Assembly (NCBI GenBank): GCA_046497275.1
Contig: JAWOFX010000090.1
Location: 1-21,711, forward strand
Direction: 5' to 3'
Length of the DNA: 21,711 nucleotides
Origin: Promethearchaeia archaeon
Lineage (GTDB): Archaea; Asgardarchaeota; Lokiarchaeia; Sigyniarchaeales; SOKP01
In this document: positions 1,678 through 21,711 of the stretch, piece after piece
Numbering within the stretch: the first letter of the stretch is position 1
Layout of the letters: every line of letters begins with the position of its first letter
Position numbers and translations under genes: made by a program
Notes under the pieces: model-generated
Database searches by the model: none
What the model saw: only the letters and a program-made list of their open reading frames with translations
What the model was told of the DNA's origin: nothing

Positions 1678-1950
1678 ATCTATTTTCTAAAATGATTTCT
1701 AAAATAAAAAATTTAATGAGATTTTAGATTATTTTCTCTATTTCTCTAATTCTTACAGAAAACTTAATACTCCTCATAATAAAAATCTAAAAAATTTAAT
1801 TTGTATCCATAATAATATCTCATTTTGATCATTCACTTCTTAGATATCGTTAATCTAACTTTCATAATCAGAAAAAATAAATTGATTCTACAATTTTTTC
1901 AATCAAGAAAAAATAATAATTATACCTTAAAATTTATGGTGATTTTTGAA

Positions 1951-1955
1951 GGGGA
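1951..1955 (+). promoter_or_regulatory. Putative ribosome-binding site of hdrA
   Basis: GGGGA 5 nt upstream of TTG at 1961. A GGTGA is also present at 1938-1942. Confidence 0.45.
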
Positions 1956-1960
1956 TTAAA

Positions 1961-3964
1961 TTGTCTGATGATAAACAGACCAAGGAAGAGATTAGAATAG
2001 GAGTTTACGTTTGTGAATGAGGTGTTAATATTGGTGCTACTGTTGATTGCGAAGCGGTAAGGGACTTTATTGAGGGGCAACCAAACGTGGTTGTTGCGAG
2101 AACCAATAAATTTACGTGTAGTGATCCCGGTCAGCAAGTTATTAGAAATGACATTTTAGAATTAGATCTTAACAGAATAGTTGTTGCGGCCTGCACTCCT
2201 AAAATTCATGAACCAACCTATAGAGCAGTATTAATTGAAGCGGGTCTTAGTCCTTATTATTTCCAAATGGTTAATATTAGAGAGCAATGTTCTTTCGTTC
2301 ATGCTGATGATAAGGAAAATGCTACAAAAAAGGCGATAAGACTTGTCATCGGAGGGATTAATCGTGCGAGAGAATTAGAAAATATTCCTCGTATAGAAAT
2401 TCCAATCGAAAATTCAGTTCTTGTCGTTGGTGCGGGAATTGCTGGAATGAATGCTGCCCTAGATTTAGCTAGTCAAGGTATAAAGGTTTATTTGGTTGAG
2501 AAAGAGGCCACCATTGGTGGAAAAATGGCACAATTAGACCGAATATTTCCTACTGATGATTGTGGGATCTGAGTATTGGCTCCAATAATGGTAAATGCAT
2601 CAAAACATCCGAATATTGAATTAATAACATATAGTGATATAATAGAATTTAGTGGTATTACAGGCAGTTATAATGTGAGGATAAGAAAAAATCCACGATA
2701 TGTTGATCCTGATAAATGCACTGGCTGTGGATTATGTACAACTAAATGTCCGATTAGTATGCCTAATGAATTTGATAGAGGTATCGGTGAACGGGGAGCA
2801 ATATATATTCCATTTCCACAAGCAGTTCCGAAACTAGCATTAATTGATAAAGAAGCGTGTATCGAATGTAAATCATGTGAGCGTACATGTCCCGGGGAGG
2901 CTATAGATTTTGAACAAGAGCCGGAATATGTTGATATAAAGGTTGGGGCTGTTATTATTGCGACTGGTTGGGATGAATATCCTATTTGGGAGTCAAATGA
3001 ATATAAATATGGTATTTATCCTGATGTAATTACTCAAATTGAATTAGAAAGGATGCTCAGTCCAATAGGACCTACTGATGGTCATGTCCATAGAATATCT
3101 GACGGTAAAATACCCAAAAAAGTTGCGATGATACAATGTGTTGGATCCAGAACGTTGAGAGGTAATCAATATTGTTCTGCTGTGTGTTGTAATGTAGCCC
3201 TAAAGAACTCTCAATTGTTAAAGCAAGAATACCCCGAAATTGAGGTTATGATATTTTATATTGACATTCGATCGCCGGATAAAGGCAATGAAGAATATTA
3301 TCGAAAGATACGGGAAGCAAATATTTCTTTTATAAAAGGAAAGCCTGGTGATATTAAATTAAATGAAGATGGTACAATGAGATTATTCTATGATAATGCG
3401 TTATTAGATGAAGTAACACATGTGGATGTAGACCTAGTAATCTTATCTACTGGAATTATTCCATCGAAAGGTACACATCAAATAATAGAGACTATGGGAT
3501 TAAGTAGTGGCCCGAATGGATTTTTATCTGAAATTCATGGATGTTTAAAACCACAAGAAACAGATAATATTGGTATTTATATTTGTGGATGCGCTGCTGG
3601 ACCTAAAAGTATTCCATATTCAGTATCAACAGCATTAGCTGCTGCGAGTAAAGCTTCAACCCTTCTTTCTAATGATACATATAGCCAAGAATTAATCATA
3701 GCAGAAGTTAATGAAGATCTATGCATGGGTTGTCATAGATGTGAAAAAGTATGTTACTATGATGCAATTAAAGTTGGAGAGAATGATATCGCGGAAGTGA
3801 ACGAATTAAAGTGCAAAGGATGTGGCGCATGTGTAACTTCTTGCCCAGCAAGAGCTATTGATATAAAATATTATCGAGAAAGACAATTTGAACAGGAAAT
3901 CAAGGGATTAGCTATGGCTGAATCAATTCCAATTAAAGAAACGAAAGCTATAGCAGAAAAATAA
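1961..3964 (+). CDS. hdrA: Heterodisulfide reductase subunit A (FAD/Fe-S electron-bifurcating flavoprotein), selenoprotein with two in-frame UGA codons (Sec20 at 2018-2020, Sec205 at 2573-2575), 667 aa
   Basis: Reading through the TGAs gives one frame: MSDDKQTKEEIRIGVYVCE-U-GVNIGATVD (HdrA N-terminal RIGVYVCxCG motif), ACTP, EQC, VVGAGIAG FAD motif, FPTDDCGI-U-VLAPIM (HdrA FPTxDCxxC motif), four ferredoxin-type CxxCxxCxxxC motifs, QCVGSR and YCSAVCC. Track ORFs 2087-2572 and 2576-3964 are in the same frame, separated only by TGA. Confidence 0.95.
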
Positions 3965-3971
3965 ACAAGTT

Positions 3972-3977
3972 GGTGAG
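3972..3977 (+). promoter_or_regulatory. Ribosome-binding site of mvhD
   Basis: GGTGAG 5 nt before ATG at 3983, within the 18-nt hdrA-mvhD spacer. This is an archaeal-type SD motif. Confidence 0.7.
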
Positions 3978-3982
3978 TATAA

Positions 3983-4402
3983 ATGTCAAAAGATAATAAA
4001 AAGAGAAATATAATTGCTTTTGCGTGCGATAAATGAGGGTACGCAGCCGCAGATTTGACGGGCACTACGAGAAAGTCGTATGATACTGATGTGAATATAA
4101 TTCGAGTCAGATGTACAGGAAGAGTTGGAATTCATTTAATTATGGATTGTTTTTTGAACGGTGCTGACGGAGTAGCCATTATTTCTTGACAAGAAGGAGA
4201 ATGCGAATTTGGAAATGGTAATATGGTCACCTATAAACATCTATCAATGTTAAAAAAAATATTTGATCATTTAGGAATTTCTGATGAGAGAATTCAGCAA
4301 TATTTTTGTTCAGCAGCCGATGTTGAGAAATTTGTAAATTCAGTGAAAGATATTCATAAGAGGATTCACAAACTACCTCCTATATCTAAGAAAACCGAAT
4401 AG
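3983..4402 (+). CDS. mvhD: MvhD/VhuD [2Fe-2S] hydrogenase/Hdr adaptor subunit, selenoprotein with two in-frame UGA codons (Sec18 at 4034-4036, Sec69 at 4187-4189), 139 aa; missing from the ORF track
   Basis: Manual translation: MSKDNKKRNIIAFACDK-U-GYAAADLTGTTRKSYDTDVNIIRVRCTGRVGIHLIMDCFLNGADGVAIIS-U-QEGECEFGNGNMVTYKHLSMLKKIFDHLGISDERIQQYFCSAADVEKFVNSVKDIHKRIHKLPPISKKTE-TAG. This matches the MvhD pattern CxxCxYxxAD...RVxCxGR...GADGV...xCxxGxC. Confidence 0.95.
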
Positions 4403-4464
4403 GATGAATCTTTCGAATAAATTTTAGTCGTAAAGATGACAGCCTCGCAAGGGTTATTTCGGTT
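4393..4464 (+). promoter_or_regulatory. Putative SECIS element of eukaryote-like (AUGA/GA kink-turn core) type
   Basis: AUGA at 4404-4407 and GA at 4438-4439. Helix AUCUUU (4408-4413) pairs with AAAGAU (4432-4437), then CGA (4414-4416) with UCG (4428-4430). AAA at 4419-4421 in the apical part. Lower helix AACCGAA (4393-4399) pairs with UUCGGUU (4458-4464). Located immediately after the stop of a two-UGA gene. Confidence 0.8.
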
Positions 4465-4519
4465 ATGAACTTTTTCATGATATTAAGTTTAAGAATTAAA
4501 AAATGTTTAAATACGAATT

Positions 4520-6022
4520 ATGAGCAATAAGGGAAGTAATGAGATAATTTTTTCAAGGAAATTCTTCAAAGCTATTATGCAAACTTTAGATTCATATAAA
4601 GTTCGAGCGTTAATTGATGCTAAAGAAGATATCATTGAAGTAGGTATCTATTCCGAAGCTCAGTATTTCAATATCTTATTTGAATTGATTGATGAAGAGA
4701 AATTAAAATATGAATTGTATGAGTATCTTAAAGAACAAGGAGAAGCTGATATTTCTCAATTAGAAATGTTTGCAAAACATAAAGATATTCGACTTAATAA
4801 AACCCTAAGTTTGTGCTATCTTTTAGAAAGAGAAGGATTAATCAATATTGAAGAAATATATGAAAAAAGCAAAAACTCTGAAGAAGAAACTTTACAAATA
4901 TTTAAAAATTTTAATTTTTCAGTAAATAATGTTGATATTACATCGATTAAACCAATTTATGAACCAGTACAAATCATATTTGACTCAAATATATGTTCGG
5001 GTTGTGGATTGTGTGCGGGTATATGTCCCATGAATTGTATTACCATAAATAATGGTTTTGGAGAAATCGATGATGATAAATGTATACGATGTGGATTATG
5101 TTATTATGTTTGTCCTCGTACTTATCTCCCAGTAAAACTTCTCAATATATATCAAGATGATGCTTCTGAAGTTAAGAATTATAGTAAAATTGGTGTTTAT
5201 AAAGAAGCATACAGTGCAAGAACGAAAATAGATGAAATAAAAGAAGTATGTCAAGATGGAGGAGTATCAAGCACTTGTTTATATTATCTTTTAGAAAATA
5301 ACAAAATAGATCTCGCAATAGGAGCAAAGATGGGAGAGAAGTTATGGTGCCCCGAACCAACTCTAATTAAAGATAAAAAAGATATAATTGAAACTGCTGG
5401 AACCAAATATGTTAACAATCCAAATCTAAAATTGTTGAATGAGATTGATCCAGAGAAAAAAGTAGCGATAGTTGGAGTACCATGTATGATGCAAGCTCTG
5501 TTAAAGTCAAAAATATATGATATTAATATTCCCCTACTGAATAACATCCAATATCGTATTGGGATTTTTTGTATGGAGTCCTTTCCTTATGAAGAGGGAT
5601 TTTTGAAGATTTGTGAGAGATTAAATGTTGAGGTTAATGATGTAAAAAAGACCGATATCAATAAAGGAAAATTCTTTGTGTATACTAAAAATGGTGAAGA
5701 ACTCAATGTTCCAATTAAAGAAGTCACAAATTTGGCAAGAGAAGATTGTGAGGTGTGTTATGATCTCACATCTGAATCTGCAGATATTTCAATAGGGTCG
5801 ATTGGAGCTCCTTCAGGATGGAATGTTGTATTAGTAAGAAATGAAAGAGGAAAAGAATTATATGACGCTTTAATAGAAAATGGTCTCATTGAATCAAAAC
5901 CTATCGAAGAAGTCAAGCCTGGACTCCCTCTTCTCCTAAAAATTGCTAACAGTAAAAAAAATAAAAGTTCTAAACATATTTTAAAAAAGATAGAAAATGA
6001 AAAAAGATATCCGTATTATTAA
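4520..6022 (+). CDS. FrhB/FdhB-family F420-binding FAD oxidoreductase subunit with a 2x[4Fe-4S] ferredoxin domain and an extra N-terminal domain of about 150 aa
   Basis: CSGCGLCAGICP and CIRCGLCYYVCP, then FrhB-type motifs QDGGVSST, AGTKY, VAIVGVPC, IGIFCMESF, CEVCYD and DISIGSIGAPSGW. Confidence 0.88.
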   Translation: MSNKGSNEIIFSRKFFKAIMQTLDSYKVRALIDAKEDIIEVGIYSEAQYFNILFELIDEEKLKYELYEYLKEQGEADISQLEMFAKHKDIRLNKTLSLCYLLEREGLINIEEIYEKSKNSEEETLQIFKNFNFSVNNVDITSIKPIYEPVQIIFDSNICSGCGLCAGICPMNCITINNGFGEIDDDKCIRCGLCYYVCPRTYLPVKLLNIYQDDASEVKNYSKIGVYKEAYSARTKIDEIKEVCQDGGVSSTCLYYLLENNKIDLAIGAKMGEKLWCPEPTLIKDKKDIIETAGTKYVNNPNLKLLNEIDPEKKVAIVGVPCMMQALLKSKIYDINIPLLNNIQYRIGIFCMESFPYEEGFLKICERLNVEVNDVKKTDINKGKFFVYTKNGEELNVPIKEVTNLAREDCEVCYDLTSESADISIGSIGAPSGWNVVLVRNERGKELYDALIENGLIESKPIEEVKPGLPLLLKIANSKKNKSSKHILKKIENEKRYPYY

Positions 6023-21527: not shown

Positions 21528-21711
21528 GTGGCCATAGGAAAAGCAGAAATTAATAATAAGGAAAATAAAGTAATTCCATATGAAATGGTTTTGAAAAGTA
21601 TAGCCTCTACTAGAGAACTAGTTGAGAGAATCCTTCCTGAAGGAGAGATTGAATCACTTAAAATTGGAGCAAAAGCAATTGAAGAAGTAGTTAAAGAATC
21701 AATTGAAAAAG
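21528..21711 (+). CDS. 5' part of an ORF truncated by the window edge, possibly the partner dehydratase subunit
   Basis: Open frame from GTG 21528 (alternative ATG 21585) to the end: MAIGKAEINNKENKVIPYEMVLKSIASTRELVERILPEGEIESLKIGAKAIEEVVKESIEK. Function guessed from context only. Confidence 0.55.
   Translation, partial: MAIGKAEINNKENKVIPYEMVLKSIASTRELVERILPEGEIESLKIGAKAIEEVVKESIEK

Follow-up and report, generated by a model that had tools for sequence, protein, structure and literature searches.

A probable SECIS element of the lokiSECIS class behind the hdrA-vhuD genes of a Promethearchaeia archaeon, set on a covarying three-way junction

The hdrA-vhuD locus

The window, that is the whole stretch of DNA analysed, comprises 21,711 nucleotides (contig C24 in the numbering used here) of a Promethearchaeia archaeon; Lokiarchaeia are now named Promethearchaeia. 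Its genome, assembled in 188 contigs, comprises 3.85 Mb at 30.4% GC. Two adjacent genes with in-frame UGA codons and an RNA element that overlaps the end of the second gene were located on the forward strand as follows.

1946-3964 (+): hdrA, heterodisulfide reductase subunit A-like (translation with TGA read as U)
2018-2020 and 2570-2572 (+): the two in-frame UGA (Sec) codons of hdrA (translation with TGA read as U)
3983-4402 (+): vhuD/mvhD/frhD, 139 aa, stop codon UAG at 4400-4402 (translation)
4034-4036 and 4187-4189 (+): the two in-frame UGA (Sec) codons of vhuD (translation)
4393-4464 (+): whole probable SECIS element, a three-way junction of 72 nt (minimum-free-energy fold, covariance model, covariation)
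4393-4399 (+): 5' strand of the lower helix (helix I), AACCGAA, inside the last vhuD codons and paired with 4458-4464
4404-4407 (+): AUGA, 5' half of the core, with G4406 and A4407 for sheared pairs; begins 1 nt past the vhuD stop
4408-4416 (+): 5' arm of the upper stem, 9 nt (fold, RNAalifold, covariation)
4417-4427 (+): apical loop of 11 nt, AUAAAUUUUAG, with the A-rich start AUAAA and the end AG
4428-4437 (+): 3' arm of the upper stem, 10 nt, with U4431 bulged
4438-4440 (+): GA, 3' half of the core, then C4440
4441-4455 (+): side hairpin of 5 bp with the pentaloop CGCAA, on the non-bulged strand between GA-C and the lower helix
4458-4464 (+): 3' strand of the lower helix, UUCGGUU (minimum-free-energy fold, covariation)

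The hdrA product was assigned to HdrA2 (E 1.5e-235) and the vhuD product matched the VhuD model (E 1e-37), both with NCBIfam. The hdrA gene carries no SECIS of its own, and the spacer between it and vhuD is 18 nt. The four UGA codons lie 215, 368, 1832 and 2384 nt 5' of the SECIS core. Orthologs of vhuD with two TGA codons were found by six-frame search in more than 20 genomes. A 500-aa protein of the FrhB/FdhB family with 4Fe-4S domains is encoded 3' of vhuD at window 4520-6022 (+), and an frhB-like gene also stands 3' of vhuD in a paralogous locus on contig C109 (L002:440-1942 (-)); the order hdrA-vhuD-frhB-like is conserved at both places and the SECIS occupies the spacer.

Structure of the element

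The element is made up of the lower helix, a kink-turn-type core carrying the upper stem with its apical loop, and the side hairpin. The first-pass annotation had proposed A-UGAA (4404-4408) opposite UGAC (4437-4440) with potential tandem G.A pairs, a following helix of 9 bp with one bulged U, and an AAA 10 nt after the quartet. Inspection of the sequence confirmed the bases, which allow tandem pairs G4406.A4439 and A4407.G4438, and the AAA was found at 4419-4421, 10 nt from the last quartet base. The 9-bp hairpin with its bulge was also the minimum-free-energy structure given by RNAfold. Its lower pairs are A4408-U4437, U4409-A4436, C4410-G4435, U4411-A4434, U4412-A4433 and U4413-A4432, and above the bulged U4431 follow C4414-G4430, G4415-C4429 and A4416-U4428. 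The loop between the lower helix and G4406 on the 5' side has 6 nt.

The folding energy (-12.4 kcal/mol) was not above that of shuffled sequences (z = +0.34) and is uninformative. The Rfam search returned no family at the site, neither at the gathering threshold nor at E up to 10 on the region 3800-4700; weak snoRNA-like matches elsewhere had E above 1 and were taken as chance. Directly 3' of the SECIS, a small hairpin AUGAA/UUCAU with flanking pairs was observed at window 4463-4482. It contains the T-run 4471-4475, shares two bases with the 3' end of the lower helix and may be a transcript-end signal.

Conservation and covariation in orthologous loci

To collect orthologs, 40 related genomes were searched in all six frames with the VhuD protein; the orthologs in genomes of the family showed 60-85% identity, mostly with two in-frame TGAs. 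The sequences 3' of each ortholog's stop from 23 orthologous loci of the same family were aligned. The alignment used (A2) was built from trimmed sequences; an earlier MAFFT alignment of untrimmed sequences (A1) had the lower helix out of register, and because of this RNAalifold missed that helix in A1.

The first-pass annotation had made its reading depend on conservation of the core in orthologous loci, and the core was retained. AUG, the AAA of the loop (4419-4421) and the UAG closing the loop (4425-4427) are invariant, the full AUGA is kept in 22 of the 23 orthologs, and the 3' dinucleotide is GA (11) or AA (12) in all 23, followed by C in 21. For these dinucleotide counts three rows were re-anchored on the second ATGA; the automatic counters gave AA 12, GA 8 and AG 3. 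One ortholog, at L025:1912-1988 (+) in genome G024, has AUGC in place of AUGA, a loop of 12 nt and a single in-frame TGA in vhuD, and its coding sequence extends into the apical loop; this element may be decaying or a variant. The extra base that forms the bulged U is unique to the window sequence among the 23 orthologs.

The upper stem was recovered de novo by RNAalifold, with two-sided changes at each of its nine pairs. In 9 of 23 orthologs the bases of the first pair do not match, as expected for the N.N position of a UGAN/NGAN quartet. The lower helix showed changes on both sides at four of six pairs (UA/AU, CG/GC, GC/AU) and the side hairpin at five of six; in the loop of the latter G4447 is invariant and C4448 nearly so. 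For the complete three-helix structure, supplied as input, 89.4% of cells were paired and two-sided changes occurred at 18 of 21 pairs. The annotation had suggested a covariation analysis of Asgard hdrA-mvhD loci, and covariation was found in these orthologs. None of 500 column shuffles attained any of the five measures, and sliding the 3' partners by one column as a control lowered the pairing to 52-59%. A second, model-fitted alignment (A3) agreed on both extra helices; it overlaps A2 and is not independent of it, at least one row being the same contig (L036 = L007).

Occurrence of the element in the genome and the family

The genome was scanned with a strict pattern consisting of ATGA, 9 bp, an 11-nt loop with at least three A in the first five positions and a final G, and then GA or AA. 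The 3.85-Mb genome yielded 12 matches; ten shuffled versions yielded 0-2. This pattern replaced a looser scan (loops of 9-13 nt, any bulge) which had yielded 127 raw matches, with positions often counted several times. Within the window a fixed-length pattern found one non-pairing chance match at 21580-21614; the bulge kept it from recognising the real element. From the ortholog alignment a covariance model (R1) was derived, which matched the window at 4392-4465 with 63 bits and gave at least eight matches at E<1e-4 in the genome, with 150 of about 8000 candidates scored. The paralogous elements outside its training set scored E 1e-13 to 1e-5. R1 omits the diverged elements of the C124 type and that of C185, whose copies in this genome are recovered by the strict pattern.

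The same element was found 3' of at least ten other UGA-containing genes in the genome. The annotation had proposed to look for the core behind other UGA genes such as selD and vhuU, and it was present behind both on searching with the strict pattern and R1 and inspecting the context. The principal loci are listed below.

C24, C171, C109 and C124: four hdrA-vhuD pairs; hdrA has 2-4 Sec codons and vhuD has two in every pair
C44:71331-71405 (-) and C100:67329-67403 (-): two vhuU genes with the motif DCULSCAAH, terminal UGA identical with the UGA inside the AUGA core
C114, SECIS at L073:330-412 (-): selD with one Sec codon and a longer, type II-like SECIS
L079:214-696 (-), SECIS at C118:75927-76002 (-): ORF of 160 aa in which two in-frame UGA codons stand side by side (motif GCUU), no Pfam family
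L005:4629-5006 (+), C185:8328-9309 region: ORF of 126 aa with one in-frame UGA (motif STUTTFFCG), no Pfam family
L001:2035-2235 (-), SECIS at C100:58455-58523 (-), 56 bits: predicted membrane protein of 66 aa with one in-frame UGA (motif PSGUAY), no Pfam family

AUGA and GA are present in all 12 elements of this genome. In the two vhuU genes the stop codon and the recoding signal overlap. The 160-aa ORF on C118 is followed 11 nt downstream by a full three-helix SECIS (R1 E 3e-5) and may represent a selenoprotein family missing from the published Asgard lists. The stop codon UGA of the 126-aa ORF on C185 is the UGA of the AUGA core. About 570 nt further downstream in C185 (L005:5364-5610 (+)) a second, similar SECIS follows a 71-aa ORF without Sec codon; this copy and the element on C167 are the two for which the upstream ORF has no obvious Sec codon. 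The SECIS at C171:7651-7722 (+) is nearly identical to that of the window while the VhuD proteins are only about 39% identical, which suggests constraint on the RNA element, or its exchange.

The side hairpin with a loop of 5 nt, mostly YGCRN, was seen 3' of GA in every SECIS of this genome that was inspected, selD included. In the selD SECIS the lower helix has 8 bp, the stem after AUGA is short and the apical region contains a mini-stem; the side hairpin of this SECIS has the CGCAA loop of the window element. The stems of the side hairpins are unrelated between elements (for example GCCU/AGGU, AAUGG/CCAUU and CACC/GGUG), and in other families of the order loci with higher GC carry the hairpin as well.

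Beyond this genome, each of the 24 family genomes gave R1 matches, 2-9 per genome; of 16 genomes belonging to the order's other families, 2 gave matches. Comparison of coordinates placed R1 matches within about 150 nt 3' of most vhuD paralogs with two TGA codons, and no R1 match lay beside any of the ten vhuD homologs without TGA that were checked.

Selenocysteine machinery

The ends of contigs C33 and C165 matched the Rfam model for tRNA-Sec with 49.4 bits (cut-off 47); ARAGORN reported no tRNA-Sec in the genome. The match (C33:11-129 (+) and C165:63-181 (-)) has 119 nt against the 91 positions of the model; an intron or a long variable arm may account for the excess. SepSecS is encoded on C33 at 2 kb from the tRNA-Sec, and an EFSec-like GTPase on C165 at 3 kb from it, scoring 233.9 bits with the bacterial SelB model, just under the cut-off. 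Since the tRNA-Sec match stands at both contig ends, the two contigs with SepSecS and the EFSec-like GTPase probably connect to form a single Sec-machinery cluster. With its in-frame TGA, SelD is a selenoprotein too. No SBP2-like protein was found in the genome, a whole-genome search with PF01248 giving two proteins only, L7Ae on C43 and L30e on C83. Candidate partners for binding the element are L7Ae, L30e, EFSec or another protein, and the data do not discriminate among them.

Relation to known SECIS classes

In the lokiSECIS class of Mariotti et al. 2016 (PMC4989117), AUGA stands before a stem of 9 bp. The apical loop has 11 nt; A predominates among its first five, and it ends in an ultraconserved G that in most cases comes after an A. 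GA (AA in vhuU) follows the stem, and the element lies near the stop codon. The same paper describes hdrA and vhuD as always adjacent with a single element 3' of vhuD, multi-Sec HdrA proteins and a longer type II-like SECIS variant for SPS, and reports that lokiSECIS escaped detection by existing SECIS models. Huang, Xiao and Zhang 2024 (PMC11227280), covering more than 400 Asgard genomes, describe the class in the main text as type I eSECIS-like, with AUGA_AA variants in hdrA/frhD of Lokiarchaeia. The window element has AUGA, the 9-bp stem with the 11-nt loop, the A-rich loop start with final AG, and GA. It is placed just 3' of a UGA-containing gene, with one element for hdrA and vhuD together, and its host has the archaeal/eukaryal Sec machinery (tRNA-Sec, SepSecS, Sec-containing SelD, EFSec-like factor). 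The multi-Sec HdrA, the lack of SBP2 and the Lokiarchaeia MAG host are likewise shared, and the bulged U in the 3' arm is a difference. The annotation's claim of a eukaryote-type SECIS in an archaeal mRNA is in accordance with these sequence and positional features of lokiSECIS, with their conservation and with the covariation. It is very probable that 4393-4464 is the SECIS of a bicistronic hdrA-vhuD selenoprotein unit and a member of the lokiSECIS, or Asgard type I eSECIS-like, class.

The call is correct and the element class is not new, having been in print since 2016 and 2024, with the operon in the 2024 catalogue. The window VhuD is letter for letter an entry of the Huang 2024 supplement (X for Sec), Lokiarchaeia_GCA_004524645_U (PMC11227280). 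The two-Sec HdrA of the window is contained in the same supplement, also labelled GCA_004524645, with X at both sites, matched on short stretches, and the C171 paralog is listed there as _U_2. The models in the main texts of both papers (PMC4989117, PMC11227280) hold the core, the upper stem and the apical loop only, the lower stem being called variable; the lower helix and the side hairpin, which are lacking in those main-text models, both covary here. A three-way junction is absent from the main texts of Mariotti 2016 and Huang 2024, and a full-text literature search on Asgard archaea returned no paper that connects SECIS to a three-way junction.

The eukaryotic SECIS (RF00031, SECIS_1) has in common with the window element the AUGA/GA quartet and the unpaired AAR above helix II. 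The window element differs in its shorter upper stem, in the conserved UAG at the end of the loop, in the third helix at the core and in starting inside the coding sequence, and neither the gathering threshold nor a limit of E 10 gave a match to RF00031. The eukaryotic element is recognised by SBP2, a protein with an L7Ae domain; the PF01248 proteins of this genome are L7Ae and L30e, and no SBP2 was found. The euryarchaeal SECIS of Methanococcales and Methanopyrus (vhuD SECIS) is likewise a 3'-UTR element of the same gene pair. The GAA_A type was rejected, as inspection of 4404-4440 revealed no GAA_A bulge and no three consecutive G-C pairs, the upper stem having only two adjacent ones (4414-4430 and 4415-4429); the dissimilarity to the methanococcal GAA/A-type SECIS pointed out in the annotation is upheld by the missing bulge. 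A box C/D sRNA was also rejected, the site reading GGAUGAA and GAUGAC rather than RUGAUGA/CUGA, with no C/D family match in Rfam.

Alternative explanations

A kink-turn could arise from the AUGA/GA core, the genome encodes both L7Ae and L30e, and an frhB-like gene lies 3' of vhuD in the window and on C109. These points are compatible with a kink-turn protein site which has a job other than recoding, such as control by bound L7Ae or L30e of the stability of the hdrA-vhuD mRNA or of the translation of the frhB-like gene starting at 4520. The element is found, however, behind unrelated genes (vhuU, selD, small ORFs without family) whose sole common trait is an in-frame UGA, it is missing beside the vhuD homologs without TGA that were checked, and most of the other loci have no downstream frhB-like gene. 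Such a role is considered very improbable.

Still less credit is given to a generic 3'-end hairpin, a terminator or stabiliser, that contains AUGA and GA by accident. The position directly 3' of a stop codon in AT-rich DNA, the T-run 4471-4475 that follows and the ordinary folding energy would suit it. A plain terminator, however, needs none of the constraints observed in the 23 orthologs, where AUG and, in the loop, AAA and UAG never vary and the loop keeps its length while the stem drifts with compensation, and the tight association with UGA-containing genes is also against it. A chance match, which short motifs frequent at 30% GC and the 127 raw matches of the looser scan might suggest, is refuted by the conservation data and has almost no probability left, given the 12 strict matches against 0-2 in shuffles, the R1 scores of untrained paralogous elements (E 1e-13 to 1e-5) and the covariation of three helices.

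Proposed mode of action

To our knowledge, no experiment in any Asgard archaeon has shown that such elements are needed for UGA recoding. The best-supported reading follows the standard scheme for SECIS elements in 3' UTRs, and we infer the following. The element in the mRNA would fold into the AUGA/GA core, probably a kink-turn, with the 9-bp stem and the A-rich 11-nt loop, the core being set on the lower helix with the side hairpin. The folded element would help an EFSec-like factor to deliver Sec-tRNASec to ribosomes standing at the four upstream UGA codons, which would thereby be read as selenocysteine. A ribosome that has reached the UAG stop (4400-4402) would already have melted the lower helix and the element would be inactive there. 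This inactivity at the true stop would follow because the lower helix lies inside the coding sequence (in vhuU the terminal UGA lies within the core itself), which forces the melting, and the true stop would escape recoding because the arriving ribosome has melted the element.

A kink-turn has tandem sheared G.A/A.G pairs beside a loop and a canonical helix on the far side, and a k-junction has in addition a third helix in the non-bulged strand. The sequence and the secondary structure are compatible with a kink-turn or a k-junction with a 5' loop of 6 nt, at the level of secondary structure alone. The k-junction of the TPP riboswitch (Wang et al. 2014, PMC4005666) is alike to the window layout in secondary-structure topology only; it has 3 or 4 nt before the G.A pairs against 6 here, from the lower helix to G4406 (PMC4005666), and its function differs from that of the window element. 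It is conceivable, though doubtful, that the core is a k-junction rather than a simple kink-turn and that the lower helix and the side hairpin are obligatory, either pre-folding the kink without protein or serving as a handle for an archaeal factor that replaces SBP2 (EFSec, L30e/L7Ae or a new protein).

The locus shows in clean form the RNA signal by which archaeal and eukaryotic Sec decoding are connected, and as an instance of the class it adds little. A single structure of 72 nt apparently serves to recode four UGA codons, spread over two cistrons and as far as 2.4 kb away, without SBP2. The set of UGA-containing ORFs without family that carry the same element, and the comparative evidence that the core is set on a conserved three-way junction beginning inside the coding sequence, may be useful to specialists, and the junction and these ORFs together bear on the question of who recognises the SECIS in archaea.
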